Shown here: one piece after another, positions 1 through 17,972 of the stretch
Layout of the letters: every line of letters starts with the position of its first letter
How positions within the stretch are numbered: the stretch's first letter is position 1
Origin: a bacterium
GTDB lineage: Bacteria > Eisenbacteria > RBG-16-71-46
Direction: 5' to 3'
Length of the DNA: 42,190 nucleotides
Assembly (NCBI GenBank): GCA_043779265.1
Contig: JAYWEM010000072.1
Span: forward strand, 1-42,190
The notes under the pieces: generated by a model
Database searches by the model: none
Seen by the model: only the letters and a program-made list of their open reading frames with translations
Told to the model about the DNA's origin: nothing
Program-made: the position numbers and the translations under genes

Positions 1-700
1 GCGGCTTCATCACCTCATGCAGCACGCCGTCGATGCGGAATCGCACGGTGATGCGCTCGCGCGAAGGCTCGACATGGATGTCGCTGGCACGCTGGTCGAT
101 CGCCTCGGCGATCATCAGATGGACGAGCCGGACGACCGGCGCGTCCTCGACCTGCTGTCGCAGCGCGGCGAGATCGATGTCCTGGTCGTCATCCTTGGCC
201 GACGTGAGATCGATCTTGTCGAGGATCTCTCCCAGGTGCTCGCTCGCTCGCATCTCCGAGTAGAAGCTGTCGATCGCCTCGCGCACTTCGCTCGGCCGCG
301 CCAGCCACACTTTGAGCGTGCAGCCGGTCAGGGCGCGGAGGTGGTCGAGCGAAACGACATCGAGCGGGTCACCGACCGCCACTTCGAGCGTGTCGCCTTC
401 CTTGTGCATCGCCAGCATCAGGGACTCGCGAGCGAGATGCTCGGGCACCAACTGCACGGCGGATCGCTCGGCCTGCGAGAGTCGTTCGGCCAGCGCGATC
501 GGCAGCGAGAACTGGGTGGCGAGGAGATCGGTGATCACGGGCTCCTCGACGAGCCCGAGGCGGACCACGGCCTGACCGAGTCGCTCGCGTTCCATGCGCT
601 CATCGAGCGCGCGGTGGACTTCATCGAGAGTCAGGTGCCCCTGCTCGACGAGCAGCTCGCCGAGCCGCCGGGTGCTGAGGCGATAGGAGGTCGAGGTCAT
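1..700 (-). CDS. pilB: PilB/GspE-family assembly ATPase, N-terminal part (runs off window start); absent from the supplied ORF track
   Basis: Manual translation from ATG at 700, which overlaps the pilT stop (ATGA): MTSTSYRLSTRRLGELLVEQGHLT...EDAPVVRLVHLMIAEAIDQRASDIHVEP...VRFRIDGVL. Carries tandem MshEN motifs and the ASDIHxEP/RxDGVL signature. A GspE assignment cannot be excluded. Confidence 0.88.
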   Translation of the reverse strand, partial: MTSTSYRLSTRRLGELLVEQGHLTLDEVHRALDERMERERLGQAVVRLGLVEEPVITDLLATQFSLPIALAERLSQAERSAVQLVPEHLARESLMLAMHKEGDTLEVAVGDPLDVVSLDHLRALTGCTLKVWLARPSEVREAIDSFYSEMRASEHLGEILDKIDLTSAKDDDQDIDLAALRQQVEDAPVVRLVHLMIAEAIDQRASDIHVEPSRERITVRFRIDGVLHEVMKP

Positions 701-1815
701 CGCGAATCCCCGCGATCGATCTCGGCGATGCGGAACGTGCGGCGCTGGACGGCGGCGCGCTTCTCGACGTCGACGAAGTGGGGGTAGGCATCCTCGAAGC
801 CGACGAGCGAGCGGTCGACGAGTTCGCCGAGAGCGTCGTCCATCGGCAGCATGTCCTCGCGCAGACTGGTGGAGATCACGTTGCCGATCTGGTGCACCTT
901 GTCCTCACGGATCAGATTCTGCACGGCCTGATTGACGAACATGAACTCGCGCGCCGCGACACGTCCACTGCCATCGGTGCGAGGGAGCAGGATCTGCGAG
1001 ACCACCGCGCGGAGCGTGCTGGCCAGCTGGGCGCGAACCTGCGACTGCTGGTGCGGCGGGAACGAATCGATGATGCGCGTCACCGTCTGCGGCGCCGACT
1101 GCGTCGCCATCGTGGAGATGACGAGGTTGCCGGTCTCGGCAGCGGTCAGCGCCATCGACATGCTGGACAGGTCGCGCATCTCGCCGACGAAGATCACATG
1201 CGGCATCTGACGCAGGGCGCCGCGCAGGCCTCGCGAGTAGGTGCGGGTGTCGACGCCGACTTCGCGCTGCTCGATCACCGCGTGCTTCGCCTCGAACAGG
1301 AACTCGATCGGGTCCTCGACCGTCACGATGTGCTTGGCCGGTCCCATCGCGTTCAGCTGCTCGAGCAGGGAGGCGATCGTCGTGGACTTGCCGGAACCGG
1401 TCGGCCCGGTGATCAGCACGAGACCCTTGGTGATGGCCAGCAGCCGTTCGACGACATGCGGCGCAAGGCCGATCTCATCCGGCAGTGGGATGCGCATGGG
1501 CACGATGCGGATGGCGGCGCCCCAGTGTCCGCGCTGGATGAACAGATTGGTGCGGAAGTGGGCGAGCCCGGGGACGTGATGGCGCGTGTCGAGTTCGAGA
1601 TCGCGCAGGAATCGCTCGTGCAGCGCGGGCGTCAGGAAGCTCTCGCACAGCCGCCTCGCCACGACGGGCGTGAGTGGCTCGAATCCCTCGAGCGGCTCCA
1701 GTCGTCCCGCGACCTGAACCATCGGAGGATGCCCCACCGTGAGCAGCAGGTCGGATGCCCGGGCATCCACTGCTCGGCGAAGGACCATGTCGCGCTCGAG
1801 AGCCTGCGGGGTCAC
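697..1815 (-). CDS. pilT: PilT/PilU-family retraction ATPase with a divergent His-box
   Basis: Walker A GPTGSGKSTT, TVEDPIEF, QREVG, Walker B VIFVGEMRD, AVQNLIRE motif. Start placed at GTG 1815 downstream of GGAG; the ORF extension to 2106 looks non-coding. Confidence 0.88.
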   Translation of the reverse strand: MTPQALERDMVLRRAVDARASDLLLTVGHPPMVQVAGRLEPLEGFEPLTPVVARRLCESFLTPALHERFLRDLELDTRHHVPGLAHFRTNLFIQRGHWGAAIRIVPMRIPLPDEIGLAPHVVERLLAITKGLVLITGPTGSGKSTTIASLLEQLNAMGPAKHIVTVEDPIEFLFEAKHAVIEQREVGVDTRTYSRGLRGALRQMPHVIFVGEMRDLSSMSMALTAAETGNLVISTMATQSAPQTVTRIIDSFPPHQQSQVRAQLASTLRAVVSQILLPRTDGSGRVAAREFMFVNQAVQNLIREDKVHQIGNVISTSLREDMLPMDDALGELVDRSLVGFEDAYPHFVDVEKRAAVQRRTFRIAEIDRGDSR

Positions 1816-2429
1816 CGGCTGGACGCTCCATGCAGAGGGGGGGGACGGGCTGCGTCGGTGGGAACCACCTGCACGGAATCGACCGGACGAGCGAGGACAT
1901 CTTACGCCAAGCCGGACGGGGGTCGGCGCGAAGAACGTCTTGGACGGTCCGAGTAGGTGAAGTGCTGCTTGAGGATAGGGAGCCGCACGCTCCCCGGTCA
2001 ATGCTGACGGGTCGCAGCGCGGTCGCTCGCGGAATCCTCGTGATCCTCCGACCCGAGATCCGTTCTCGTGCTGTCCGGAGTCTGGAAAGCGCTCAGGAAA
2101 GTTCATCGGAGCTCTGGCACTGGCCGTCTTCGTCCGCTATATTCCGTCTCGCGTTCGCTCGATTCCGGGTCGAGCCTCGCACCCAAGGAAGGGTCAGCGC
2201 TCCCGTGTGTCCATTGGAGTGCGGCCCCCCGACGGGGCCCCGTGCAGCGACAGGGAAGGTCGCCCTTCGTTGCACTCCGGCATCGCTCGGACAGCAAGTC
2301 GCACGATGCGCAGTCGCTGGATCTCTCCCCACGGAAGGATCCACAACGGTTCAGGTCCACTCGGATGTCACGCTTCCGAGCGGGCTGCGAACGCAACTTC
2401 CTCACAAGATCATGGATGAGTGGTGGTGC

Positions 2430-2445: not shown

Positions 2446-2608
2446 CTGCGCACCGCGGTTCTCGGTGACCCTGTGTCGGGTCGATCCGGGCCCGGAGTCG
2501 GTCGAACGTGCGGGTCCCATCTGTTCGCGACCAGCTCTGCACCTCGCTCATGCATCTTGCGGTCGGCGCCTCTCCTCCCTCCTGGGTGGCGCCTCGGAGG
2601 CAGCGTTC

Positions 2609-3415
2609 ATGCACCGTTGGTCCGTCGCATTCGCGGCGGTCATCGTGACTCTCACGATGTCCGTCTCCGTGGTCCATGCGCAGTCGGCATGGAACAGCGT
2701 CACCCTGTCCTGGACGACTCCGGGGGACGACAGCTTGAGCGGTACGGCTTCGCAATTCGACATCCGCTACTCGACATCGCTCATCACCTCGGCCAACTAC
2801 GCTTCGGCCACGAGGTGGACTTCGGGCGTGCCGGTTCCGACCGCGCCCGGTTCGAGTCAGAGCGTGATGGTCACGGGCCTCACGCCCTCGACCACCTACT
2901 GGTTCGCGATCAAGACAGGCGACGATGTTCCGAACTGGGCCGGTATCTCCAACGTGGTCTCGCGGACCACGACGGTGGCACCCGATGTGTCGCGCCCGGC
3001 AGCTCTGGCGATCAGCGTCTCGTCGATCAACGACACGTCGGCCACGCTGCAGTGGGTCGCCGTGGGGGACGACTCGCTGACCGGAACCGCCACGTCCTAC
3101 GACATCCGCTACTCGAGTTCTCCGATCACCTCGGCCAACTGGGCGACGGCGATCCAGGCGACGGGGGAGCCCACTCCGACCGCGGCCGGGAGCACGCAGT
3201 CCTGCCAGGTTCGCGGGTTGTCACGGCAGGTGACGTACTACTTCGCCGCCAAGGTGACCGACGACTCGGGCAACGTCTCGGGACTCTCCAACGTCCCGTC
3301 GGCGACCACGCCCGATACCAAGGCCCCCGCCACGATCGCCGACCTCACGGTCGGGTGGATCTGGCTCAACGCCTCGAGCACGGCGCTCACGCCGCCTCGA
3401 CAGGCGGCCCGCTAG
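2609..3415 (+). CDS. Secreted tandem FN3 protein (2 domains, no C-terminal sorting domain)
   Basis: GGAGG RBS, ATG 2609; signal peptide ending VHA; two repeats of W(T/V)xxGDDSLxGTAxxYDIRYS...Y(W/Y)FAxK..DD..N..SN. Confidence 0.85.
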   Translation: MHRWSVAFAAVIVTLTMSVSVVHAQSAWNSVTLSWTTPGDDSLSGTASQFDIRYSTSLITSANYASATRWTSGVPVPTAPGSSQSVMVTGLTPSTTYWFAIKTGDDVPNWAGISNVVSRTTTVAPDVSRPAALAISVSSINDTSATLQWVAVGDDSLTGTATSYDIRYSSSPITSANWATAIQATGEPTPTAAGSTQSCQVRGLSRQVTYYFAAKVTDDSGNVSGLSNVPSATTPDTKAPATIADLTVGWIWLNASSTALTPPRQAAR

Positions 3416-3416
3416 G

Positions 3417-4400
3417 ATGCAGGGAACCCTGCGCGTTCACGCGCTCTTCCGGCGGGGTTCCTTAGCAGCGATCGCGTGCGCGTGCCTGCTCACCGGGCAC
3501 GCGCACGCGCAGTCCGCAGGCGCGGACTCGCTCCGACTTCATTGGACGGCTCCGACCGATGACGGTTCGACGAGTGCAGTGGCGAACTTCGAAGTGCGGA
3601 AGTCCTCGAGCGCGATCCTGACCGAGGTCGACTACGCCCTCGCTTCGATCCTGCCCGGAGTGCCCACGCCGGGCCCGGCGGGAACGCCGCAGGTCATGCG
3701 CGTGCGAGGACTGGCCTCGGGGGTGAGCCACTGGTTCTGCGTGCGCAGCGTGGATGCGGCGGGGAACTGGTCGGGGCTCTCGAACATCCTGAAGTGGGAC
3801 GGCGCGCTCGATACCGCCGCGCCGCAGGCTCCCGCCAACGTCTCGGCGACGCCCGATGATGAGTTCAAGGTCGTGCGCATCACGTGGCGGCCCAACACCG
3901 AGCCGGATCTCGCGGGTTACTACGTGTTCCGCTCAGCGAGTGTCCAGGGGCCGTGGGAGGAGGCGGGCCGCGTGCAGGGGCAGACGACCGAGTTCCTCGA
4001 TTCGCGCTTGCCGGCGGCTCCCGTGCTCGTCTACCAGGTTGCCGCCTATGACGCGCGGGGCAACGTGAGCGCTCGCTCGCGAGCCGTCACCGTCGAACTG
4101 GGAATCGATGCGCCATCCGCCTGGCGCCTGTTGCCCGCCTATCCGAATCCTGCCCGCGCCGGGGACTCCCAGCGCATCCCGGTCGCTGCGCCAGTTGCAG
4201 CGACGGCGATCCTCGAAGTGGTGGATGCGGCTGAGTCGCGTGTCCGCCGACTCGAGGCGGTGCTGCGCGCGCCGGGATTGATCGAGTTCCAGTGGGACGG
4301 TCGCAACGATGCCGGGCGGTTGTGCGCGCCGGGCGTCTATCGCGCCTGGCTCCTCGCCGATGGCGTCCGCAAGTCCATCCGTCTCGCGAGGCTCCCCTAG
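3417..4400 (+). CDS. Secreted FN3 x2 protein with C-terminal FlgD-Ig/T9SS-like sorting domain
   Basis: Signal peptide ending AHA; WTAPTDDG and WRPNTEPDLAGYYVFR FN3 motifs; C-terminal AYPNP...WDGRNDAGRLCAPGVYRAWL. Confidence 0.85.
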   Translation: MQGTLRVHALFRRGSLAAIACACLLTGHAHAQSAGADSLRLHWTAPTDDGSTSAVANFEVRKSSSAILTEVDYALASILPGVPTPGPAGTPQVMRVRGLASGVSHWFCVRSVDAAGNWSGLSNILKWDGALDTAAPQAPANVSATPDDEFKVVRITWRPNTEPDLAGYYVFRSASVQGPWEEAGRVQGQTTEFLDSRLPAAPVLVYQVAAYDARGNVSARSRAVTVELGIDAPSAWRLLPAYPNPARAGDSQRIPVAAPVAATAILEVVDAAESRVRRLEAVLRAPGLIEFQWDGRNDAGRLCAPGVYRAWLLADGVRKSIRLARLP

Positions 4401-4401
4401 C

Positions 4402-5418
4402 ATGGGCGCCCGCGCACGGATGCGCATGCAGAGTCTCGCGCTCGTCGCGACCCTGGTCGCCCTCTTTGCGCCCATGCGGGCGCGCGCCGATGGCGAGGGC
4501 TCCGGAACGCGAGCGGCGAGCTTCCTCCAGACCGCCGCGGCTCCGAGATGGAGCGCCATGGGTGGAGCCGGACTCGCGAGCGGCGGCGACCTCTCGAGCG
4601 CCGTCTGGAATGCCGCTTCGCTCGCTTCGCTGTCCGAAGCTCGCTGGGAGGTCATGCATGCCGAACTCCCGAGCGGTGGCCAACTTTCGTGGGGATCCCT
4701 CGGCGGTCGTCACCCCGGCGGTACTCGCTGGGCCCTCACCGCGCTGCATCGCTCCGAAGGGGACATCGAGGGGCGCGACGCGTCGAACCAACCCACGCAG
4801 ACCTTCACCGCGCAGTCCCTCGCGCTCGGCCTGACGCTGGCCAGGCCGGTCGGCTCACTGCTCTCGGTGGGAGGCACCGCGCGCTATGTGGGCGAGCACA
4901 TCGGCGCGACGCACGGAAACGGCCTCGCATTCGGTTTCGGCGCTCAGGCGAGACTCGGCGTGCTCCGTGTCGCGATCTCCGGTCAGGACTTCGGCGGTGG
5001 CATGCGCTGGGAACACCAGCAGTGGGCCATGCCCGCGACACTCGCGGCGGGATTCGCACTCGTGCATGAGGGAAGTGGGCTCACGTTGGCGACCGATCTC
5101 GCATCACCTGCCGCCGGCCTTCGCAGCCTGAGAACAGGCGCCGAGTGGACGATCGGTGGTCGTGCCGCGCTGCGCACCGGATGGCGACAAGAACTCGGTG
5201 TCTCGTCCGCTGACGCACCGGGTGGCCCGAGCTTCGGACTCGGACTCGCGGTCGGCGCGATGTGGCTCGACTACTCGATCGAGAGCGGCGCGCGATCCGA
5301 GGGCGTGCAACGTGTCGGGCTGTCGCTGGCGCCTGGTCGGCGCGGCGGTGGCCTCGCCCTGCCCGGCTCGCCCGGCTTCGTCGGGCCCACGCTGCCGCCC
5401 GGGCCAACGCGCGACTGA
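4402..5418 (+). CDS. PorV/PorQ-family outer-membrane beta-barrel
   Basis: Signal peptide; AASFL...SAMGGAG...AVWNAASLA N-terminal motif of PorV/FadL-like barrels; alternating beta-strands; LRTG and LDYS strands. Start could be 4402, 4420 or 4426. Confidence 0.8.
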   Translation: MGARARMRMQSLALVATLVALFAPMRARADGEGSGTRAASFLQTAAAPRWSAMGGAGLASGGDLSSAVWNAASLASLSEARWEVMHAELPSGGQLSWGSLGGRHPGGTRWALTALHRSEGDIEGRDASNQPTQTFTAQSLALGLTLARPVGSLLSVGGTARYVGEHIGATHGNGLAFGFGAQARLGVLRVAISGQDFGGGMRWEHQQWAMPATLAAGFALVHEGSGLTLATDLASPAAGLRSLRTGAEWTIGGRAALRTGWRQELGVSSADAPGGPSFGLGLAVGAMWLDYSIESGARSEGVQRVGLSLAPGRRGGGLALPGSPGFVGPTLPPGPTRD

Positions 5419-5585
5419 GGCCACAGGCTCTCGCAGCCTGCCCGGGTGCATTGCAGTTTCCCTCGGACGCGCCTCCCCGGCACCCGCCGACGGGTTCTCC
5501 CCGCACGTTTCCGCTCCGCTGCAGGTTGAACCGCCACCAGCACTTGCGAGGACGTCGCGCGTGGATCCGATCGAGCGCCTCGAGT

Positions 5586-5601
5586 GGGCACGCAAGCTGC
5601 T
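5586..5601 (+). promoter_or_regulatory. Putative sigma54 promoter for the third FN3 gene
   Basis: gGGCACGcaagcTGCt: GG at 5587-5588, 10 nt, GC at 5599-5600; about 100 nt upstream of ATG 5701. Confidence 0.65.
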
Positions 5602-5700
5602 CGAAGGTGCGCGGCCCGGTGGCCCGACTCACCACCTGGGCCGCTGAGCGCTGGGACCGTCGAGCTGGCCTCGACTCACGCGGATCGATCTGGAGTGGCG

Positions 5701-7002
5701 ATGACCGACTGGAAGCGCATCGTGGCAGTGGCAGCGTGGGTGGCCGTCTCGGGCGTGAGCTCGGTGCAGGCCCAGGTCACGTCCACGACCGTGGGACTCA
5801 GCTGGACCGCGCCCGGCGATGACTCGCTCAGTGGGACCGCATCGGTCTACGACCTGCGCATGAGCCTGTCGGCGATCGATGGCGCCAACTTCGCCTCGGC
5901 GACTGCGGTCACGAGTCTCCCGACACCGCTCGTCGCGGGTACGCGCCAGAGCAAGACGGTGAGCGGCCTGTCGCCCTCGACCACCTACTGGTTCGCGCTC
6001 AAGACGCGTGACGACGCCGGCAACTGGTCGCCCATCTCCAACCTCGTTCAGGCGACCACGCTCGTCACGAACGATCCCATTCGCCCGGCCGCGCTCGCGA
6101 TCTCCTCGGGCGTGCTCACCTCGACTAGCGTGCAGCTGACTTGGAACGCAGTCGGTGATGACAGTCTGAGCGGCACGGCGACGAGCTACGATGTCCGCCG
6201 CTCGACGAGCGCGATCACCGAGGGCAACTGGGCGAGCGCGACCCAGGTCCCCGGGGAACCGGCTCCGGCGGTTGCGGGCACCGCGCAGAGCATGACGGTC
6301 TCGTCGCTCGATCGCTCGACCGACCTCTACTTCGCCGCCAAGGTGAGCGACGAGGAGGACAACTTCTCGGCGCTCTCGAACGTCGTGATGGTGGCTCGGC
6401 TGCTCGACACGGCGCCGCCGTCGACGCCCTCGGGCCTCGCGGCGTCGCGCGAGACTCCCTCGAACGTGCGCGTGCAGTGGAACGACAACGCCGAGGCCGA
6501 CCTCGCTGGCTATCGCGTCTACCGTGCGGTCGCAGCGGCGGGACCCTTCACGCTGATCAGTGGCGGCTCGCTGGTCGTGGCCTCGGAGTTCCTCGACACG
6601 TCGGTCCCGGACTCGAATGCCGTGTGGTACCAGGTGAGTGCCGTCGATGCGACGTCGAACGAGAGCGCACGCACGGCGTCCTTCCGACTGTGGCTCGCGG
6701 GCGAGGAAGTGCTGGCGTGGACGATCCAGCCCGCGTATCCGAATCCCAGTTCGCTCGCCTCACCGGTGACGCTCCCGATCGACGTGCCGGCGGCCGGTCC
6801 CTTCGAAGGCCGCGTTGAGATCACCAACAGCGCCGGCGAGCGAGTCCGCGTCATCGAACTGCAGGGTCTCTCGCCGGGCACGCAGTCGGTGCAGTGGGAT
6901 GGACTGAACGATGCGGGCCGTCGCACCGCGCCGGGGATCTATCGGGCCTGGCTGCACGTCGGCGGCAGGCGCAGCGCGGTGAAGGTCGTGCGCACGCCCT
7001 GA
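5701..7002 (+). CDS. Secreted FN3 x3 protein with C-terminal FlgD-Ig/T9SS-like sorting domain
   Basis: GGAG RBS; signal peptide ending VQA; WTAPGDD, WNAVGDD and WNDNAEADLAGY repeats; AYPNP...WDGLNDAGRRTAPGIYRAWL. Confidence 0.87.
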   Translation: MTDWKRIVAVAAWVAVSGVSSVQAQVTSTTVGLSWTAPGDDSLSGTASVYDLRMSLSAIDGANFASATAVTSLPTPLVAGTRQSKTVSGLSPSTTYWFALKTRDDAGNWSPISNLVQATTLVTNDPIRPAALAISSGVLTSTSVQLTWNAVGDDSLSGTATSYDVRRSTSAITEGNWASATQVPGEPAPAVAGTAQSMTVSSLDRSTDLYFAAKVSDEEDNFSALSNVVMVARLLDTAPPSTPSGLAASRETPSNVRVQWNDNAEADLAGYRVYRAVAAAGPFTLISGGSLVVASEFLDTSVPDSNAVWYQVSAVDATSNESARTASFRLWLAGEEVLAWTIQPAYPNPSSLASPVTLPIDVPAAGPFEGRVEITNSAGERVRVIELQGLSPGTQSVQWDGLNDAGRRTAPGIYRAWLHVGGRRSAVKVVRTP

Positions 7003-7024
7003 TCGGATTCCGTGATGAGTCGAT

Positions 7025-7063
7025 CGCGAACGCCCGGCGGGGATTCATCGCCGGGCGTTCGCG
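7025..7063 (+). terminator. Strong stem-loop after the FN3 x3 gene (terminator or stabiliser)
   Basis: cgcgaacgcccggcg / cgccgggcgttcgcg, 15-bp stem with 9-nt loop; no U-tract. Confidence 0.5.
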
Positions 7064-7227
7064 CGTACGTCGACGAACCGCTCTCGTGCGGAATGCAGAG
7101 CGTTGGCGGATCGGCATTGCGGGAGGCGGCGGAGCGCCATGGTCCCGTCATCGACCCCGGAAAGTGCCGATCGGTCAGGTCGCGCAGTGACAATCGGTTG
7201 CGGTGATGTCCTCTTGTGAAGGCGAAG

Positions 7228-7243
7228 CGGCACGGACAGTGCT
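7228..7243 (+). promoter_or_regulatory. Putative sigma54 promoter for the PorV-LysM gene
   Basis: cGGCACGgacagTGCt: GG at 7229-7230, 10 nt, GC at 7241-7242; 60 nt upstream of ATG 7303. Confidence 0.65.
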
Positions 7244-7302
7244 CCATCGGCGCGGACCCGGAATTCCGTGGGATGTCACCCGACGCATCGGAGACCTGCA
7301 CC

Positions 7303-8901
7303 ATGCACCGCACCCGCCTCATCGCAGTCCTGCTGCTCGCCTCGGCCTCGGCCGCGCATGCGGGTGGCGCCGGCGCCGGGACCACGGCCGCCAACTTCCT
7401 CTCGGTCGGCCAGGGTGCCTCGTCGCTCTCGATGGGCGGCGCGGCGATCGCGTCGCCCGGTGGCCTCGATGCGGCGGGCTGGAATCCTGCGGCGCTCGGA
7501 CGACTCGGCTCCACGCAGATCACGCTCTCGCATGCCTCGCTCGCGACCGGCACGTCGCAGGAGTGGGCCTCGGCCGGCGGCCGCATGGGCCAGGGTTCGA
7601 CCCGCTGGGCGATCAGCGCGCTCTATCAGAGCGATGGTGACTTCGAGGGGCGCGACGCCCTGAATCTGCCGACCGGTACCTTCCAGATCTCGGACATGGC
7701 ATTGGGCCTGCACGTCGCGCGTCCGCTCGGTGATCGGGTGAACGCAGGCGTCGGCCTCAAGTGGGTGCGTGAGTCGCTCGGGCCCACGAGTGGAAGTGGC
7801 ATCGCGTTCGATGCTGGGATCCAGTCGCACGCCGGGCCCTTCGGCTTCGGTCTCGCGGCTCGCAATGTCGGCGGGTCGATGTCGTTCGACGGCACCTCCT
7901 ACGACATGCCCTCGGTGTTCGGCGCCGGCGTCTCGTGGGCGCACCCCGCCAACGGACTACGCCTGGCGCTCGATGCGAACGCACCGTCCGCCTACTACAA
8001 CGATGTCCGCGCCGGAGCGGAGTGGCGCTGGCGCGATCGCGTCGCGCTCCGCAGTGGCTACCGCGCGAATCTCGGAGCGCCGGAGGGCGAGCCCCTCGGC
8101 GGCGCGAGCTTCGGCATGGGCCTCGGTGCGAATGGCTTCTGGTTCGACTACGCATTCCTCGCCGGCGATGCCGATGCGCAGGGGCGGCATCGCTTCGGCA
8201 TGACGTTCCGCCCGAGTGCGCTGGCCTCACTCGGCGGTCGTGGCGTGCTCGGTGCGAACGAGAGCGCTCCCGCACCGGCGAAGTCCGAGCCCGTGAAGTC
8301 CGAGCCGGTGAAGGCGCTCGCCGCATCGCCCGCACCCGCGGCGGCCATGGCCCCGCCGATCACGCTGGATGCGGCTGCGATGACGCGCGGTGTCAGCCAG
8401 GCTTCGACGACTCCCATCGCGCACCGCGCCGGGCCGCCTCAGCCTGTGATGCTCGAAGTGAGTCGCGGTGTGAAGGTGCCCAAGGTGATCCACTCGAAGC
8501 TCGACCCGATCGCTTCGGTCACGAATACTCCCGTCGCCAGGCCCGTCGTGGCGCCTCCGGTCGCTCAGGCCCCTGCAGCGCCGAAGGCTGCCGAACCGCT
8601 CGCAAGTGCTCCGGCGCCTCGCGTCGAGGCAGCGCCGCGGGCCGCCCTTGCGAGCGAGCCGCAGGTCGATGCGCAGACGGTCTCGACCCGAGTGCCGGCA
8701 GTGACCGTGGTGCCGCGAGCCAAGAGCACGCCGCCCGGACCGCGCCCGCGGTCGGTGGAGGCGCAGGGGGAGGAGACGCTCGCCGACCTCGCGAAGCGCT
8801 GGGACACGTCGGTGCCGCGCCTGATGATGGAGAACAATCTCGTCACCGAACGGATCAAGCCGGGCCAGCGCATCAAGCTGCCGCCGGCGGGAAGTCGCTG
8901 A
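7303..8901 (+). CDS. PorV/PorQ-family beta-barrel fused via a Pro/Ala-rich linker to a C-terminal LysM domain
   Basis: Signal peptide ending AHA; GTTAANFLSVGQGASSLSMGGA...WNPAAL; FDYAF and HRFGMTFR terminal strands; long Pro/Ala linker; ETLADLAKRWDTSVPRLMMENNLVTERIKPGQRIKLP (LysM). Confidence 0.83.
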   Translation: MHRTRLIAVLLLASASAAHAGGAGAGTTAANFLSVGQGASSLSMGGAAIASPGGLDAAGWNPAALGRLGSTQITLSHASLATGTSQEWASAGGRMGQGSTRWAISALYQSDGDFEGRDALNLPTGTFQISDMALGLHVARPLGDRVNAGVGLKWVRESLGPTSGSGIAFDAGIQSHAGPFGFGLAARNVGGSMSFDGTSYDMPSVFGAGVSWAHPANGLRLALDANAPSAYYNDVRAGAEWRWRDRVALRSGYRANLGAPEGEPLGGASFGMGLGANGFWFDYAFLAGDADAQGRHRFGMTFRPSALASLGGRGVLGANESAPAPAKSEPVKSEPVKALAASPAPAAAMAPPITLDAAAMTRGVSQASTTPIAHRAGPPQPVMLEVSRGVKVPKVIHSKLDPIASVTNTPVARPVVAPPVAQAPAAPKAAEPLASAPAPRVEAAPRAALASEPQVDAQTVSTRVPAVTVVPRAKSTPPGPRPRSVEAQGEETLADLAKRWDTSVPRLMMENNLVTERIKPGQRIKLPPAGSR

Positions 8902-8929: not shown

Positions 8930-9082
8930 TCAACCTCGAGTGAGGCTGTGCCCGAGCCACGCGGCGGCGATGCCGAGCACCACCGAACCCGCGGCGTAGG
9001 CGAGCACGAATGATCCCGCTACGTTGATCCGCAGGGTGCTGCCGAGTGCGCCGCCCGCCGCTACCAGCAGCAGCGTCCTCAC
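8930..9082 (-). pseudogene. crcB: Internally deleted crcB/Fluc fluoride-channel remnant (50-aa open frame)
   Basis: GTG overlapping the E1alpha stop; MRTLLLVAAGGALGSTLR / INVAGSFVLA / YAAGSVVLGIAAAWLG match Fluc TM1, start of TM2 and TM4; the GxxGxxTTFS TM3 is absent. Confidence 0.7.
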
Positions 9083-10185
9083 AGTGGGAAGGCGCCCTCG
9101 AAGTGGGTGCCCTTGCCGAGGGCCTTGGCGTACTTCATCTGCTCCTCGAGCGCGGCCGGCATGGTCGCGTACACATCGGTGAAGAGGGTCTCGATCTCCG
9201 GGGGCGGCAGCGCCTCGGCTTCGGTGATGGCGGCGGAGATCGCATCGTTGATCTCGGTCGTCCACTGCTCGAGGTCCGCATCCGTGAGCAGGCCCTCGCT
9301 GCGGAGCCAGGCCTCGAAGCGCCGCACGGGATCGCGGTCCTCCCAGTACTTCACCTGCTCGGCATCGCGATAGCGCGTGGGATCGTCACTCGAGCTGTGG
9401 CCGGCCATGCGATAGGTGAGCGACTCGATGAACGTCGGTCCCTCGCCGGCGCGGGCGCGCTCGACCGCGTCACGCGTCACCTGGATGACCGCGAGCAGGT
9501 CATTGCCGTCCACGCGCACGCCACGCATGCCGTAGGCCACTGCCTTGATGGCGATGCTGCTGGAGGCCGTCTGGGCTGAGAGCGGCACGGAGATCGCCCA
9601 CTGGTTGTTCTGGCAGAAGAACACCGCCGGCACCTTCCAGACCTGCGCGAAGTTGAGTGCGGCGTGGAAGTCCGAGCTCGACGTGCCGCCATCTCCGATG
9701 TAGCCCATGCAGACCGTGTCGTGCTTCAGGAGCTTGGCCGCGTAGGCGGCGCCCATCGCGTGAGTCAACTGGGTGCCGATCACGCTCGACCACGCGACCG
9801 AGTTCACGCGCCGATCGCTGAAGTGCATGGGCATCTGGCGGCCGATCAGGACATCGCCCGAATTGCCCATCAACTGGCAGATGAATTCCTTGAGCGTGGT
9901 GCCTCGCCACAGACAGACACCCGTCTCGCGAAGTGCGTGGAAGACCCAGTCGGTCGGGCGCAGCGGATAGGCCGATCCCGTGACGGTGGCTTCCTGGCCG
10001 GTGGCCATACCGTAGAAGCCGATGCGCCCCTGCCGCTGGAGCGAGAGCATGCGCTGGTCGAGCAACCGCATCGACACCATGTGCCGGTGCAGCGCGCGCA
10101 GGTCCTCCTTCGGGATCCCGGGGATGGCCGCGACGGCGACGCCCGAGGGGTCGATCACCTGGTGCAGCGTCTCGTCGACGTTCAT
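9079..10185 (-). CDS. bkdA1: 2-oxoacid dehydrogenase E1 alpha (branched-chain type likely)
   Basis: LQRQGRIGFY, GRQMPMHF, ThDP motif GDGGTS...NN, YRMAGHSSSDDP. Confidence 0.9.
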   Translation of the reverse strand: MNVDETLHQVIDPSGVAVAAIPGIPKEDLRALHRHMVSMRLLDQRMLSLQRQGRIGFYGMATGQEATVTGSAYPLRPTDWVFHALRETGVCLWRGTTLKEFICQLMGNSGDVLIGRQMPMHFSDRRVNSVAWSSVIGTQLTHAMGAAYAAKLLKHDTVCMGYIGDGGTSSSDFHAALNFAQVWKVPAVFFCQNNQWAISVPLSAQTASSSIAIKAVAYGMRGVRVDGNDLLAVIQVTRDAVERARAGEGPTFIESLTYRMAGHSSSDDPTRYRDAEQVKYWEDRDPVRRFEAWLRSEGLLTDADLEQWTTEINDAISAAITEAEALPPPEIETLFTDVYATMPAALEEQMKYAKALGKGTHFEGAFPL

Positions 10186-11393
10186 GCGAGGTCCCCTTCG
10201 GCGATCCAGTCGGCCGGCTGCTGCAGCCGCTCGATCAGGGTGTAGAGGAAGTCGGCACCCACCTGGCCGTCGACCACGCGATGGTCGAGCGAAAGCGAGA
10301 GGTTGCCCATGTCGCGCGCGACGATGCTGCCGTCGACGACCGCGGGCCGCTGCGTGATGGCGTGCACACCGAGGATCGCCACCTGGGGGTGGTGCAGGAT
10401 CGGAGTCGCCAGCAGGCCCCCACGAGTGCCGGTCGAAGTCACCGTGAACGTGCCGCCCTGCAACTCGTCGAGCTTGAGATGATGATCGCGAGCCGCAGTC
10501 GCGAGCCGCTCGATCTCTCGCGCCAGGGCGAAGAGGCCCTTCTGGTCGGCGTCGTGGACGATGGGGACCGTGAGCCCATCGACGGTGTTGGTCGCGATCC
10601 CGAGGTGATACGAGCCCTTGAGCACGACTTCGCTCGCGGCGTCATCGAGCGAGGCGTTGAGCAGGGGGAACTCGCGCAGCACGCCCGGGAGCGCTCGGAA
10701 CAGATACGCGAGGTAGGTGAGTTTGACGCCTGCTGCCTCGGCCTTCGGCTTGAGCGCGCGGCGATGCTCGACGAGTCCCGTGAAGTCGCACTCGGCCACG
10801 AACGTGAACTGCGCCGCGGTCGAGAGCGAGCGCCGCATGTGATCGGCGATCTTGCGGCGCATGCCGCGAAGCGGCACGCGCGTCTCGGGGCCGCGTGAGG
10901 ACATTGTCGGGGCCGTTGCGGAGGCAGGGCCGCCCCCGGCCCGGACATCCTCGGCGGTGATGCGCCCGTTGGGCCCGGTGCCCTTCACGGACTCGAGCGA
11001 GACGCCGAGTTCCTTGGCGAGGGCTCGCACGGCGGGCGTCGCTTCGATCCGCGCGGGAGCCGCGGTTGCCGGCGCCGAAGCAGCCGCGCTCGGTGCGGCG
11101 GCCGCGGCCGGAGCCGCATGCGCATGCGACACATTGCTCCCCGAGGCCGCGTCGTCCGCGACCTCGATGGTCACGATGAGCGTGCCGACCGGGACCGTGG
11201 CGCCCTCCTCGGCGTGCAGGCCGGAGATGATGCCCGTGCGTGGCGACGGGATCTCGACGCTCGCCTTGTCGGTCATCACCTCGACGAGCGGCTGATCCTC
11301 TTTCACCGCTTCGCCCTCTTGGACGAGCCAGCGGACGATCTCGCCCTCCGCCACGCCCTCGCCGATGTCCGGGAGTCTCACCTCGTACGCCAT
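10182..11393 (-). CDS. bkdB: Dihydrolipoamide acyltransferase E2
   Basis: Lipoyl domain EVMTDKASVEIPSP, E3-binding domain (ATPAVRALA...GTGPNGRIT), catalytic DHRVVDG. Confidence 0.92.
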   Translation of the reverse strand: MAYEVRLPDIGEGVAEGEIVRWLVQEGEAVKEDQPLVEVMTDKASVEIPSPRTGIISGLHAEEGATVPVGTLIVTIEVADDAASGSNVSHAHAAPAAAAAPSAAASAPATAAPARIEATPAVRALAKELGVSLESVKGTGPNGRITAEDVRAGGGPASATAPTMSSRGPETRVPLRGMRRKIADHMRRSLSTAAQFTFVAECDFTGLVEHRRALKPKAEAAGVKLTYLAYLFRALPGVLREFPLLNASLDDAASEVVLKGSYHLGIATNTVDGLTVPIVHDADQKGLFALAREIERLATAARDHHLKLDELQGGTFTVTSTGTRGGLLATPILHHPQVAILGVHAITQRPAVVDGSIVARDMGNLSLSLDHRVVDGQVGADFLYTLIERLQQPADWIAEGDLA

Positions 11394-11427
11394 GCGGGCC
11401 TCATCGAGAAGTTCGCGCGTTGCGCGG

Positions 11428-12393
11428 TCAGTAGCTCAACACGTGATCGAGCGCCGCCGAGACGCGCTTGGCGTCCGGGAGGTACGTGTGCTCGAGCGTG
11501 TAAGGGAATGGGGTGTCGTAGCCGGTCACGCGCAGCACCGGCGCCTGCAGGGACGTGAGCGCCTGCTCGGCGATGATCGCGGCGAGCTCGGCGCCGTAGC
11601 CGCAGGTGCGCGGTGCCTCGTGCAGGATCACGACGTGTCCCGTGCGGCGGACGCTGTCGAGCACGGTGGCGGTGTCGAGCGGCACGAGTGTGCGCAGGTC
11701 CACGACCTCGACCGAGCGACCACTCGCCTCGGCCGCCTCGATCGCGACGGGGACCATGGCGCCGTAGCACAGGATCGTGGCCTCGGTTCCCGCTCGCGCG
11801 ATGCGCGCCTTGCCGATCGGCGTCGTGAACGCGCCCTCGGCGACGTCCTCCTTGATGGTCCGATAGAGGCGCTTGGGCTCGAGGAAGATGACCGGGTCCT
11901 CTCCCGCGAGTGCCGCGAGCAGGAGTCCCTTGGCATCACTCGGTGTGGAGGGGATCACTACTTGCAGGCCTGCGGTGTGCGCGAAGTAGGCCTCGGGACT
12001 CTGGGAGTGGTAGAGGCCGCCTCGGATCCCTCCGCCATAGGGCGCTCTCACGATCACCGGACAGCTGTACTGGCCGGCCGAGCGCCAGCGGAACTTGGCG
12101 AGCTCGCTGACGATCTGATCGAACGCGGGATAGATGAAGTCGACGAACTGGATCTCGGCGACGGGCTTGAGCCCGTAGAGCGCCATGCCGATCGCTCCGC
12201 CGATGATGCCGTTCTCGGCCAAGGGCGTGTCGAGCACGCGTTCCGCGCCGAACTCCGCCTGTAGGCCATCGGTGACGCGGAACACGCCGCCGTTGAGGCC
12301 GATATCCTCGCCCAGGACCACCACACGCGGATCGTCCCGCAAACCCGTGCGGAGCGCGTCGGTGATGGCCTGGACCATGGTCATCTGGGGCAT
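11428..12393 (-). CDS. bkdA2: 2-oxoacid dehydrogenase E1 beta
   Basis: GEDIGLNGGVFRVT, DTPLAE, EIQFVDF, HSQSPEA; ATG 12393 with GGAGG RBS. Confidence 0.92.
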   Translation of the reverse strand: MPQMTMVQAITDALRTGLRDDPRVVVLGEDIGLNGGVFRVTDGLQAEFGAERVLDTPLAENGIIGGAIGMALYGLKPVAEIQFVDFIYPAFDQIVSELAKFRWRSAGQYSCPVIVRAPYGGGIRGGLYHSQSPEAYFAHTAGLQVVIPSTPSDAKGLLLAALAGEDPVIFLEPKRLYRTIKEDVAEGAFTTPIGKARIARAGTEATILCYGAMVPVAIEAAEASGRSVEVVDLRTLVPLDTATVLDSVRRTGHVVILHEAPRTCGYGAELAAIIAEQALTSLQAPVLRVTGYDTPFPYTLEHTYLPDAKRVSAALDHVLSY

Positions 12394-12521
12394 GGGGATC
12401 CTCCGGGGCCTTGAGCGACTGAGCAGGGTAGCCGAGGCCGCGGATCGGGGCCAGACGGCCGAACGAGGCCCGGTTCGGTGCAGCACACAGGGCTCGAGTC
12501 GGGGCGGGTGAATGCCGAACA

Positions 12522-12557
12522 TTAGTCTTGACTAACGATTACGTTAGACGTATCTAA
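12522..12557. promoter_or_regulatory. Tandem DtxR/MntR-family operator boxes overlapping a promoter
   Basis: TTAGTCTTGACTAA (12522-12535) and TTAGACGTATCTAA (12544-12557), both TTAG-N6-CTAA palindromes offset by 22 bp; TTGACT -35-like hexamer inside box 1; AT-rich island upstream of the mntR operon. Confidence 0.8.
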
Positions 12558-12602: not shown

Positions 12603-13376
12603 ATGGACCGTCGCCTCGCCGCCCTGGTGCTCCCGCTCACCCTGACGGCCGTTCTGTCGAGCGCTTCGACCGCGCGGGACATGTCGACCGATCGCCCCGA
12701 TGCCACCGAGAGTCCGATCCCGGTCGATCCGGGCCGGTGGCAGCTCGAGCTGGATGCGCTCGCATGGACCGACTTCGCGAGTGGAGCTCGAACCCTGCAG
12801 GCGGCGGTGATCAATCTGAAGCGCGGACTGGCGCCGCAGACCGATGTCCAATTCCTCCTGACGCCGTTGACGTTCGATCGCGCGCCCGATGTCCTCGGCG
12901 GCGAGAGTGACGTCGCTCCGGCCTCGCTGGGGATCCGGCTCAAGCACAATCTGTGGGGTGCCGACGGCGGCAGAACCGCACTCGCGCTGCTTCCCTTCGC
13001 GACGATCCAGGTGGGCGGCGAGGGCGCTGGGGATGCCTGGGTCGCGGGCCTCGCGGTGCCGGTGGCGGCGGATCTCGGATCGGGTTTCGGCGGTGGCGCG
13101 ATGATCCAGGCAGCGAGCGTGCACGATGGCGAGGGCAGGACCTCGATCTGGACGACCACGGCGACGGTGGGGCACGCCGTCTCGGGACCGCTCTCGGCCT
13201 ACGTCGAGTTCATCGCCTCGACGTCCTCGCGCGCCTTCGACCTCGTCTCCACGACCGCCAGCTTCGGCGTGACCGTGCGGCCGTCGGACGATCTCCAGCT
13301 CGATGCCGGGGTTCGCACCGGGTTGGTGCGTGATGAATCGACTGTCGTGTTCCTCGGGCTGTCGGCACGTCGATGA
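12603..13376 (+). CDS. Outer-membrane beta-barrel 'transporter' (Phenol_MetA_deg/SphA-like)
   Basis: Signal peptide; TDRPDATESPIPVDPGRWQLE motif; amphipathic strands; terminal LQLDAG...FLGLSAR. Confidence 0.75.
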   Translation: MDRRLAALVLPLTLTAVLSSASTARDMSTDRPDATESPIPVDPGRWQLELDALAWTDFASGARTLQAAVINLKRGLAPQTDVQFLLTPLTFDRAPDVLGGESDVAPASLGIRLKHNLWGADGGRTALALLPFATIQVGGEGAGDAWVAGLAVPVAADLGSGFGGGAMIQAASVHDGEGRTSIWTTTATVGHAVSGPLSAYVEFIASTSSRAFDLVSTTASFGVTVRPSDDLQLDAGVRTGLVRDESTVVFLGLSARR

Positions 13377-14056
13377 GACCCGCGCTCACGATCTCGCGCC
13401 AGGACTACCTCAAGGCGCTGCTCGGCCTGGGCGGGCAGACGCGCGTCGTGGGCACCTCCGAACTGGCGAACAGGCTCGGCGTCGCGCCGCCCTCCGTGAC
13501 TCACATGTTGCGGCGCCTGGCGCAGGATCGATTGGTGACGCTCGCCCCCGGTGCGGGAGCGAAGCTGTCGGCCTCCGGGGCCCGGGAGGCGCTGCTCGTC
13601 GTGCGGCGACACCGACTGCTCGAGACGTTCCTCGTCGGGCATCTCGGTCTCGATTGGAGCGAGGCGCATGAGGAGGCCGAGGTGCTGGAGCACGCGGTGA
13701 GCGATCGTGTCCTCGACGCCCTCGACCGATTGATGGATCACCCGAGCGAGGACCCGCACGGGCATCCGATCCCGGACGCCACCGGGAAACTCGAGCACCG
13801 CGCGCTGACGCCGGCCATCACGCTCGACGTCGGGGAGTCCGCCGTCGTGCGCGAGATCCGAGACCACGACGCTCGCCGCATGGCGAGGTGGCAGGCCGCA
13901 GGTCTGGTTCCCGGCGCCGCCGTGCGCATGTGCGCCGTGGACCGTGAGGACGATGTCTTCGAACTCGAAGTGGCGGGCCGCGCGCTCATCAGCGGCAGCG
14001 AGGGACTCGAGGGAGTCCTGGTTCAGCGAAGAGGCGGTGCACGTGCGAAGGCTTGA
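13373..14056 (+). CDS. mntR: DtxR/MntR/TroR-family metal-dependent repressor with FeoA domain
   Basis: QDYLKAL, HTH (ELANRLGVAPPSVTHMLRRL), RRHRLLETFL, HEEAEVLEH, DPHGHPIP, C-terminal FeoA/SH3. Confidence 0.92.
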   Translation: MRPALTISRQDYLKALLGLGGQTRVVGTSELANRLGVAPPSVTHMLRRLAQDRLVTLAPGAGAKLSASGAREALLVVRRHRLLETFLVGHLGLDWSEAHEEAEVLEHAVSDRVLDALDRLMDHPSEDPHGHPIPDATGKLEHRALTPAITLDVGESAVVREIRDHDARRMARWQAAGLVPGAAVRMCAVDREDDVFELEVAGRALISGSEGLEGVLVQRRGGARAKA

Positions 14057-14975
14057 TCCGAAGTGGGGCGCGCTGCTCATGATGGCGCTGGTGACGGGAT
14101 GCGCAGGCAGTGAGAAGTCGCCGGAACGGGCGGAGGGCGGGCCGCTGCGCGTGCTCGCGACGACGGGCATGGTGGCCGACGCAGCGCGTGTGATCGGCGG
14201 GGATGCCGTCGAAGTCACCGCGCTCATGGGCCCGGGCGTCGACCCGCACCTCTACAAGGCGAGTGAGAGCGATGTGAGGGCACTCTCGGGTGCGGACCTC
14301 GTGCTCTACAACGGTCTCCATCTCGAGGGGAAGATGGCGGAGCTGTTCACCCGACTCGCCGCGAAACGTCACGTGGTCGCACTCGCCGATGGCGTTCCCG
14401 ACTCGCTCCTGCTCCACCCCAAGGCGTTCGAGGGCCAGCCCGACCCGCATCTCTGGTTCGACGTGGCGCTGTGGTCGAGGGCCGTTGCGCAGGCGCGCGA
14501 TGCGCTGGTCGAAGCTCACCCGGCACATCGCGAGGCGTTCCACGCAAGGGCTGCCGCCTACCTCGACACGTTGCGCGCGCTCGAGGCCTGGACTCGCGCC
14601 GAGCTCGCCCTCATCCCCGAGCAACAGCGCGTGCTCGTCACCGCGCACGACGCCTTCGGATACTTCGGACATGCTTATGGGGTCGAAGTCGTGGCCCTGC
14701 AGGGGATCAGCACTGTGAGCGAGTTCGGGCTCGCCGACGTCAGGCGACTCGTCGATCTCATCGTGAAGCGCCGCGTGAAGGCGGTGTTCGTCGAGTCGAG
14801 CGTCCCTCACCGAAGCATCGAAGCCGTGGTCGAGGGCTGCCGTGCGCGCGGCCATCAAGTCAGCATCGGCGGAACGCTCTACTCCGATGCACTCGGCGCC
14901 GACGGCACCCCCGAGGGCACGTACGTCGGCATGGTGCGCGCCAATGTCTCGATGATCGTGAGGTCACTGCGATGA
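14043..14975 (+). CDS. troA: Mn/Zn/Fe ABC transporter solute-binding lipoprotein
   Basis: Lipobox LVTGC; GVDPHLY, DPHLWFD, TAHDAFGYF, LYSDALG. Confidence 0.92.
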   Translation: MRRLDPKWGALLMMALVTGCAGSEKSPERAEGGPLRVLATTGMVADAARVIGGDAVEVTALMGPGVDPHLYKASESDVRALSGADLVLYNGLHLEGKMAELFTRLAAKRHVVALADGVPDSLLLHPKAFEGQPDPHLWFDVALWSRAVAQARDALVEAHPAHREAFHARAAAYLDTLRALEAWTRAELALIPEQQRVLVTAHDAFGYFGHAYGVEVVALQGISTVSEFGLADVRRLVDLIVKRRVKAVFVESSVPHRSIEAVVEGCRARGHQVSIGGTLYSDALGADGTPEGTYVGMVRANVSMIVRSLR

Positions 14976-15757
14976 ACCCGGTCACGGGCGTTCCTGCTCT
15001 GGAGGTGCACAACCTCACCGTCGCCTACCATCGTCGACCGGTCCTCTGGGACGTGGACTTCGCCGTCCCCGAGGGCGTGCTCGTCGGGATCGTCGGGCCG
15101 AACGGCGCCGGCAAGAGCACGCTCCTCAAGGCGGTGATGGGGTTGCTGCCGATCGCATCCGGGAGCGTCCGTGTCTTCGGGGAGGGCCTCGCCCAACAGA
15201 GGCGACGGGTCGGCTACGTGCCGCAGCGCGAGTCGGTGGACTGGGACTTCCCGGTCCGCGTCCGCGAGGTCGTCACGATGGGCCGCTACGGGCACCGCGG
15301 ATTGTTCGAGCGCCCGACCGCCGCCGATCGCGCGATCGCCGATCGCGCCCTCGAGCGCATGGGCATGGCCGCATTCGCGCAGCGGCAGATCAGCGAGCTG
15401 TCGGGCGGCCAACAGCAGCGCGTCTTCCTCGCGCGCGCGCTGGCGCAGGAGGCCGACCTCTATCTGATGGACGAGCCGTTCGCCGGCGTCGATGCGGCGA
15501 CCGAGCAGGCGGTCGTCGAGTTGCTTCGCGAGCTTCGCGCCAAGGGCCGCACGGTGATGGTCGTGCACCATGATCTGGTGAGTGTTCCCGACTACTTCGA
15601 CTGGGCGGTGATGCTCAACCTGCGCCTCGTCGCGTGCGGGCCGGTGACCGACGTGTTCACGCCCGAGCATCTGCGCAGCACCTACGGCGGACGACTCTCG
15701 CTGCTCACCGATGTGGGTGAAGCCGTGCGCCGCGCACAGAGTGGACAGCCGACGTGA
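14972..15757 (+). CDS. troB: Metal ABC transporter ATP-binding protein
   Basis: GPNGAGKST, YVPQRESVDWDFP, LSGGQQQR, MDEPF, VHHDL; ATGA overlap with troA. Confidence 0.93.
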   Translation: MNPVTGVPALEVHNLTVAYHRRPVLWDVDFAVPEGVLVGIVGPNGAGKSTLLKAVMGLLPIASGSVRVFGEGLAQQRRRVGYVPQRESVDWDFPVRVREVVTMGRYGHRGLFERPTAADRAIADRALERMGMAAFAQRQISELSGGQQQRVFLARALAQEADLYLMDEPFAGVDAATEQAVVELLRELRAKGRTVMVVHHDLVSVPDYFDWAVMLNLRLVACGPVTDVFTPEHLRSTYGGRLSLLTDVGEAVRRAQSGQPT

Positions 15758-17064: not shown

Positions 17065-17972
17065 ACGACGTCGCGTGGATCATGCTCGCCGGTGCCCTGG
17101 CCGCCGGTTCCTGCGCCATCGTGGGGTGCTTCCTCGTCCTGCGACGCATGGCCATGTTGGGCGATGCGATCAGCCACGCCGTGCTGCCGGGGATCGCGCT
17201 CGCATTCCTCCTCACCTCGAGCCGCGATCCGCTGCCGATGCTGGCGGGTGCCGGCGCTCTCGGGCTGGTGACCGCCGGGCTCACCGATTGGCTGCATCGC
17301 ACCGGCCGCATCCAACAGGACGCGGCGATCGGCGTGTCGTTCACCTGCCTGTTCGCCATCGGCGTCATCCTGATCTCGGCCTTCGCCGGCCAGGTCGATC
17401 TCGATCAGGAGTGTGTGCTTTACGGCGAGATCGCATATGTCCCACTCGATCTGTGGTGGCTCGATGATGGTCGCTCGATGGGCCCGCGCGCCGTCTGGAT
17501 TCTCGGCAGCGTGTTCGCTCTGAACGTGGCCTGGGTCGCACTCGCCTGGAAGGAACTGCGACTCTGCGCGTTCGATCCCGAGATGGCCGCAGCGCTCGGG
17601 CTGCCGGTGGTCGGCATGCATGCGGCGCTGATGGCAGCCACGTCGCTGACGACGGTGGCCGCGTTCGAGAGCGTCGGCGCGATCCTCGTGGTGGCGATGC
17701 TGGTGGGACCCGCAGCGACCGCCTACCTGCTCACCGATCGGCTCGTGCGCATGGTGGGTCTCGCCGCCGTCATCGGCGCGATGTCGTCCGTGTTCGGCTA
17801 TGCGCTCGCCCGGATGTGGGATGCCTCGATCGCCGGATGCATGGCGCTGGCCATCGGATTCTTCTTCCTGCTCGCCGCGTTGTTCTCGCCGCGGCACGGG
17901 GTGGTCACTCGGGCCTGGCGATTGCGGCGGATCGTCGGCGATCAGGCGCTGGAGCCCCCGCTCATTCCCTGA
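17061..17972 (+). CDS. troD: Metal ABC transporter permease
   Basis: MLGDAISHAVLPG, VDLDQECVLYGE, AFESVGAIL. Confidence 0.9.
   Translation: MNDVAWIMLAGALAAGSCAIVGCFLVLRRMAMLGDAISHAVLPGIALAFLLTSSRDPLPMLAGAGALGLVTAGLTDWLHRTGRIQQDAAIGVSFTCLFAIGVILISAFAGQVDLDQECVLYGEIAYVPLDLWWLDDGRSMGPRAVWILGSVFALNVAWVALAWKELRLCAFDPEMAAALGLPVVGMHAALMAATSLTTVAAFESVGAILVVAMLVGPAATAYLLTDRLVRMVGLAAVIGAMSSVFGYALARMWDASIAGCMALAIGFFFLLAALFSPRHGVVTRAWRLRRIVGDQALEPPLIP

Follow-up and report, generated by a model that had tools for sequence, protein, structure and literature searches.

In a cellulosome, which is built by cohesin-dockerin binding, secreted carbohydrate enzymes of unrelated kinds each carry the same type of portable module at the C-terminus, by which they bind to a scaffold anchored on the cell, and in chaperone-usher pili (Pap/Fim) the canonical donor of the completing β-strand is an N-terminal extension of the subunit. 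In the type V pili of Bacteroidia (FimA, Mfa1), the C-terminus of one subunit supplies a donor strand that fits into the groove of the following one, and anchor, stalk and tip classes are distinguished; the pilins are lipoproteins of two transthyretin-like domains whose N-terminal anchor strand undergoes gingipain-type cleavage, and the tip pilins are without donors (PMC13655056). An incomplete β-sandwich is also completed by the strand of a neighbour in the Pam pili of the candidate phyla radiation (CPR), in which the donor is a linker strand (PMC13278184), and in the TasA superfamily including AbpX and cannulae (PMC12518558). As to the T9SS (type IX secretion system), the source used here describes cleavage of a C-terminal domain (CTD) followed by sortase-type anchoring (PMC11285876).

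Here, we describe an operon at positions 2609 to 8901 of a 42,190-nucleotide stretch from a member of the Eisenbacteria (contig JAYWEM010000072.1 of assembly GCA_043779265.1; the whole stretch is called the window below). It encodes three proteins with fibronectin type III (FN3) domains, P1, P2 and P3, and two outer-membrane barrels, V1 and V2. The first FN3 domain of each of the three proteins begins without its strand A, which would leave an open groove, termed the socket here, and P1 ends in a lone strand A, termed the tag. These genes apparently represent a real, conserved and undescribed strand-complementation system; the preliminary description of the locus, made from the sequence letters, did not recognise the system, and no published description was found in a full-text literature search (most subscription papers are outside its scope). 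We consider it fairly probable that this is a split-FN3 tag-and-socket surface system, with CTD-bearing anchors, P1 as a head-to-tail extender and tagged enzymes as tips. Judged from sequences and models, three types of parts exist, namely socket-only proteins with a CTD, proteins with socket and tag and no CTD, and secreted enzymes with a tag only and no CTD. In the host genome, the first type comprises P2, P3 and two proteins encoded elsewhere, the second P1, and the third a single protein. By its predicted products, the locus is distinctive in that one conserved subunit has a socket as well as a tag and is encoded in an operon alongside pairs of CTD anchor and barrel.

The system resembles type V pili in its putative C-terminal donor and in its proposed anchor, stalk and tip classes. 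It differs from them in that P1 is FN3 by profile and by fold, has no lipoprotein Cys (the predicted cleavage site is an invariant Ala-Gln, with no Cys there) and would have a groove open from translation, and in that the putative anchors are without a donor and carry a CTD, while the tips would be donor-only enzymes. It would share with chaperone-usher pili, Pam pili and the TasA superfamily the incomplete β-sandwich subunits completed by a neighbour's strand; however, the Pam pili and the TasA superfamily have other folds than FN3, and in profile scans the five operon proteins matched FN3, FlgD_ig, PorV/PorQ and LysM only, with no chaperone, usher or TasA-family match. The FlgD-like CTDs, the PorV/PorQ family barrels and the SprA-like and C25 peptidase genes are in common with the T9SS attachment complex (PorV, PorQ, PorU), whereas strand-tag docking of CTD-less passengers, one-to-one pairing of barrel and anchor, and a LysM-tailed barrel were not found in the literature that was searched. 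Finally, the logic of a portable C-terminal docking module on unrelated enzymes is that of the cellulosome, but the tag has about 14 residues instead of being a folded dockerin, each scaffold protein has one socket, and length would be gained by polymerisation instead of tandem cohesins.

Gene organization and domain composition

The genes of the operon and the segments of P1 are as follows.

2609-3415, + strand: P1, 268 aa; signal peptide, strand-A-less FN3, complete FN3, lone strand A, 19-aa tail; CTD absent
2681..2980, + strand: P1 domain 1 (strands B-G), putative acceptor socket; first residue is the invariant Gln
2984..3313, + strand: P1 domain 2, complete FN3; matched by solved single FN3 domains over model residues ~102-213
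3314..3355, + strand: P1 lone C-terminal strand A, proposed donor DTKAPATIADLTVG; -24 to -11 relative to the strand-B Trp
3356..3412, + strand: P1 tail, aromatic then basic; kept within the P1 family
3417-4400, + strand: P2, 327 aa; signal peptide, strand-A-less FN3, complete FN3 of another subtype, FlgD-like T9SS-type CTD; proposed anchor
4402-5418, + strand: V1, PorV/PorQ family outer-membrane barrel
5701-7002, + strand: P3, 433 aa; signal peptide, strand-A-less FN3, two complete FN3, FlgD-like CTD; proposed longer anchor (from sequence only)
7303-8901, + strand: V2, PorV/PorQ family barrel, Pro/Ala-rich linker, C-terminal LysM

The mature N-termini are predicted at 2681 (P1), 3510 (P2) and 5773 (P3), with the signal-peptide cleavage sites placed by eye from the pattern A-x-A before Q, and the internal strand-A segments begin at 2984, 3810, 6070 and 6406. 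P1, P2 and P3 all exceed the Pfam cut-off for fibronectin type III (PF00041), and Pfam also gives FlgD_ig matches in P2 and P3 and a LysM match in V2. The host genome carries SprA-like (SprA_N) and Peptidase_C25 genes. With their predicted signal peptide and C-terminal Ig-like CTD, and with translocon and sortase genes in the genome, P2 and P3 fit the pattern of T9SS cargo.

The barrels had been called PorV-like and dedicated to the FN3 proteins. Both V1 (93.9 bits) and V2 (128.4 bits) exceed the cut-off of 90 bits of the NCBIfam PorV/PorQ family (NF033709). However, they are nearer PorQ than PorV, and pass neither specific cut-off in the PorV and PorQ equivalog tests (NF033710 or NF033711): the PorQ scores of V1 and V2 (62.1 and 94.7, cut-off 220) are higher than their PorV scores (33.1 and 34.4, cut-off 250). 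As for a dedicated role, the pairing of the genes is its sole basis, and the genome has 11 V2-like matches and at least 38 CTD-like open reading frames (ORFs).

Strand content and conservation of P1

The first domains of all three FN3 proteins begin at strand B, as had been proposed: the motifs are in place, and the Pfam fn3 matches begin at model position 7 (P1), 7 (P2) and 4 (P3) of 84. In the AlphaFold2 model of mature P1 (mean pLDDT 87, pTM 0.57), domain 1 has six strands and no strand A, while domain 2 has its strand A at residues 112-116; the first domain in the model of P2 (pLDDT 91) is likewise six-stranded, without strand A. A complete seven-strand N-terminal domain, which would have contradicted the preliminary description, was therefore seen in neither model, nor did the C-terminal strand fold back in the monomer of P1, where residues 212-244 have no secondary structure. 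Solved FN3 domains can be superposed on the P1 model, e.g., 6bt9_B with a Z of 11.6 and an rmsd of 1.6 over 90 residues, and since such single domains cover P1 residues ~102-213, the terminal segment falls beyond domain 2. With P1 as the query, solved structures gave no sequence match at E <= 0.01, and fold searches with its model gave ordinary FN3 tandems, with no filament among the matches listed. For two mature copies of P1, complex prediction returned ipSAE values of 0.37, 0.25 and 0.35 against a mark of 0.42, with 0.00 for three unrelated-partner controls and contacts not reported; we count it neither way.

The lone strand A and the lack of a CTD in P1 were also borne out. A homologue search in the range of 147-469 aa gave 933 matches, and the strand at 3314-3355 has a counterpart at the end of 118 of the 120 listed proteins (the query included); the C-terminal strands were called by script, and the N-termini of some long stop-to-stop frames, mislabelled 'noA-internal', were read by eye. 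These homologues and the syntenic loci stop after the lone strand instead of running into a third full FN3 domain. Consequently, truncation or an assembly artefact of P1 is ruled out. In an alignment of 103 near-length homologues, which excludes longer proteins and those with atypical N-termini, all 103 rows have D236 and P240 in the lone strand. This strand has a mean entropy of 0.97 bit, compared with 1.21 in the internal strand A and 2.51 over the signal peptide.

The operon is kept in Eisenbacteria. Among 41 Eisenbacteria-type loci, P1 is followed by an FN3 anchor-type gene in 38 (two others end at a contig edge, and in one P1 stands alone) and by a PorV-like gene in 32. Tandem-FN3 matches at E <= 1e-60, which count P3-like proteins too, occur in 120 of 201 sampled genomes of the phylum. 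In family f7, a P1-like gene with the lone strand is flanked by strand-less FN3 genes at all 13 fetched loci, and at 6 of them a barrel is visible as well. There are also versions of P1 with three FN3 domains, in other phyla, and with one, in three genomes; in the one-domain versions the linker from strand G to the tag has 3-5 residues, as in tandem repeats.

Most relatives (L016-L036) have P1, one FN3-CTD gene and one barrel, and the five-gene form of the window resembles a lineage-specific duplication of the anchor and barrel pair (L002, L004, L008-L011, L013, L014). Two- and three-FN3 proteins with a terminal lone strand A are found beside FN3-CTD genes in Zixibacteria-like, Ignavibacteria and unclassified bacteria (L057, L058, L046, L059, L064). 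In most of these proteins the N-terminus retains a part of strand A, and this suggests that strands are exchanged, not simply complemented.

Within the P1 family the tail has a conserved G/S/N-aromatic-x-W pattern and a basic end, while family f7 has an acidic tail, Zixibacteria have a long one that varies, and several P1 homologues have none. A PEP-CTERM-type membrane anchor is disfavoured: a 19-residue Kyte-Doolittle mean of 1.6 is reached by 3 of 103 tails vs. 78 of 103 signal peptides, and other lineages have an acidic tail or lack it.

The terminal strand as a portable tag

Then, does the lone strand occur outside P1? A degenerate DNA pattern for the tag and a stop was searched for in 151 genomes of the class, with offsets of one to five codons after the Leu; a pattern as strict as this can miss variants. 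The consensus DxxPPxx[IV]x[DN]L plus 1-5 residues gave 92 stop-terminated matches. At an offset of three codons, stops are found in 56 of 71 rows (11 in the reversed-pattern control), and at four codons in all 14 rows, where TGA and TAA only were considered (control 0). The other offsets gave stops in 14/15 rows at one codon (control 7), 2/9 at two (control 5) and 6/34 at five (control 4). The non-stop rows end in a Trp codon; the eleven that were read are internal domains or chance, and many at offset five are P1 itself.

These matches yield 57 distinct tagged ORFs (loci L121-L211), 18 with an adjacent FN3 core, 39 without and none with a CTD. Therefore, the lone strand cannot in general be a cap in cis of the last FN3 domain, and this explanation is ruled out. 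Pfam matches were found for 24 of the 31 FN3-free tagged ORFs that were scanned, i.e., 8 β-helix, 4 GHL15/CBM, 3 kelch, 3 metallophosphoesterase, 2 GH38-like, 2 other fn3, 1 BNR and 1 Ro60 protein, and most of the complete FN3-free ORFs have signal peptides (by eye).

The only clear tag-only cargo found in the host genome is a secreted β-helix protein that has a single complete FN3 and, at its C-terminus, a strand A on its own, without CTD (G000:C84:27116-29074; L077:7234-9075). The tag is the end of this query and of all its 14 full-length homologues, the most distant of which has 32% identity; they make up 15 of the 21 listed matches, and the other 6 are fragment and partial matches. The same genome encodes two minimal proteins that consist of a signal peptide, a strand-A-less FN3 and a CTD (G000:C62:7500-8411, G000:C96:31700-32416). 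Their sockets appear to begin 8 residues before the strand-B Trp, and the tag of the β-helix protein ends at -9.

Register of tag and socket

In 345 of 432 intact repeats, the spacing from the strand-A Asp to the strand-B Trp is 24 residues; a representative search returned only multi-repeat giants, which were taken as the control set. Counted from the same Trp, 88 of 103 members of the P1 family have mature chains that begin at -10. Free tags stop most often at -11 (56 of the 92 stop-terminated matches), which is also where the P1 donor ends. That is, the commonest tag end abuts the predicted first residue of the acceptor exactly. Covalent head-to-tail ligation, which was raised by this exact register, was dropped since the invariant N-terminal Gln is presumably cyclised (the 'Q-rule'). 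A candidate Ca2+ site at the junction may be formed by the tag Asp and by invariant acidic residues in the PGDD and D..N loops.

Tags and sockets also go together in genomes. For family f7, a P1-like gene is found no farther than 10 kb away from 19 of 41 tags; these belong to 11 of 18 genomes, which are related and not independent; 4 of 45 tags are left out of this count, with no P1-like place listed for their genomes. Sockets are present in all four tag-bearing genomes checked, one of them frameshifted. In addition, relatives have natural F5/8C insertions between strands A and B, so that the fold tolerates a break there. Among the giant FN3-family proteins, P0149, P0186, P0191, P0214 and P0237 have a discoidin-type domain in this place, which Pfam confirmed as F5/8C for three.

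Proposed mechanism and alternatives

The N- and C-termini of FN3 sit at opposite poles of the domain, and for this reason a fold-back in cis of the one-domain P1 versions is implausible. Complementation in trans is likely, being indirectly backed by these versions, by the FN3-free tagged enzymes and by the domain insertions between strands A and B, and we place good confidence in the docking of the tag into the socket of another molecule. In the tag-and-socket scheme, the inserted tag would complete the FN3 fold of the other molecule, and a chain would have the polarity CTD anchor (P2 or P3), (P1)n, enzyme or adhesin tip. The CTD proteins would be exported by a T9SS-like machine, and the adjacent PorV/PorQ-like barrel, or else sortase-type attachment after CTD cleavage, would keep the anchor in place. 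P1 would lengthen the chain head to tail, while the CTD proteins would stop it at the cell end and the tagged enzymes would cap the far end; parts without a CTD would probably cross the outer membrane docked on a CTD-bearing partner. Consequently, of the head-to-tail filament first proposed for P1, the anatomy is right and docking in trans is likely, but a long filament is plausible only, and the strand is better read as a portable tag. Chains of more than a few P1 subunits have, in our estimate, a little under an even chance.

Several observations weigh against this scheme. In G001, a Zixibacteria genome with a strand-less FN3-CTD protein, none of 13 profile and 7 pattern matches is a lone tag, and G007 (99% complete) has a socket and no tag among 3 strict-pattern matches; strand-less domains may therefore be stable alone. 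The operon is without P1 in 4 of 4 loci of genus g4, and P1 is therefore dispensable there, although one genome of this genus has a P1-like gene elsewhere. Many Zixibacteria-type N-termini begin at about -15, keep most of strand A and overlap the donor, and the tail of P1 runs 19 residues beyond the register point, where it has to be either cleaved or directed away from the surface. A search of the 92% complete host genome for PorP/SprF gave no match, but it was negative in all control genomes too. Finally, the Ro60 protein is a chance match among the 57 tagged ORFs.

Some of these points suit explanations without a filament. Docking might serve export or one-step tethering, with tagged cargo riding on a socket-CTD carrier across the T9SS-like translocon, P1 a single spacer or adaptor, and its tail limiting self-association. 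This would be in line with the mutual exclusion of tag and CTD (0 of 57 tagged ORFs), the minimal socket and CTD proteins (the two above, and one in G004), the missing P1 at the genus g4 locus, and the five operon genes, among which no chaperone gene is evident that would block premature polymerisation in the periplasm. However, socket and tag of P1 share one register, which leaves no obvious bar to the addition of P1 to P1, and several P1 homologues have no tail; we regard this explanation as unlikely, though the strongest of the alternatives. A less probable one is that the strand-less FN3 is a trimmed, self-sufficient domain and the C-terminal peptide a sorting signal read by, for example, a PorV/PorQ-like barrel or a peptidase. 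Strand-less first domains are indeed common in CTD proteins (19 in non-Eisenbacteria loci), and sockets without a detected tag occur in the two genomes just mentioned, but the tag retains the consensus of strand A, its end is in register with the first residue of the socket, and tagged genes cluster near socket genes. It is very improbable that P1 forms a closed small oligomer (a strand-swapped dimer or ring) or closes on itself: the relative orientation of its domains is poorly defined (see the pTM value above), so that bending is possible, whereas the monomer model has no fold-back, and the one-domain P1 versions and the FN3-free cargo cannot self-close.

Genomic surroundings

The operon is preceded by divergent genes for pilB- and pilT-like ATPases (window 2-2106, - strand) and followed by a 2-oxoacid dehydrogenase cluster (window 9079-12522, - strand), and this flanking order of ATPase, operon and dehydrogenase recurs at most related loci. 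A promoter scan between pilT and P1 gave one weak sigma-70-like site per strand and no terminators, and no RNA holder was found for 2500-5400. Farther downstream, window 13373-17972 (+ strand) holds a DtxR-type regulator and a Mn/Zn/Fe ABC uptake operon, one permease of which is fused to an iron-dependent repressor C-terminal domain. Two large genes adjoin each other, one for a 1018-aa BNR/sortilin-repeat protein (window 25421-28477, + strand) and one for a 908-aa secreted protein (window 28552-31278, - strand) with a possible zinc-protease HExxH motif, a CTD-like end and no Pfam match at 1e-5.

Implications

At its fullest, which we put forward tentatively, the tag-and-socket scheme describes an FN3 pilus built without a chaperone, or a 'linear cellulosome', in Eisenbacteria and neighbouring phyla, in which a T9SS-anchored socket would nucleate a P1 chain linked through the C-terminal strand A, tagged enzymes would cap it, and the tag would carry CTD-less proteins through the T9SS. 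If the scheme is true, the FN3 fold and the T9SS would join the known routes to strand-complemented surface fibres, and a function would be given to a widespread, unnamed architecture that in databases is just a 'fibronectin type III domain protein'. It would also provide a natural pair of peptide tag and catcher, together with a programmable protein stalk, and would explain how secreted enzymes without a CTD reach and stay on the surface of these uncultured bacteria.

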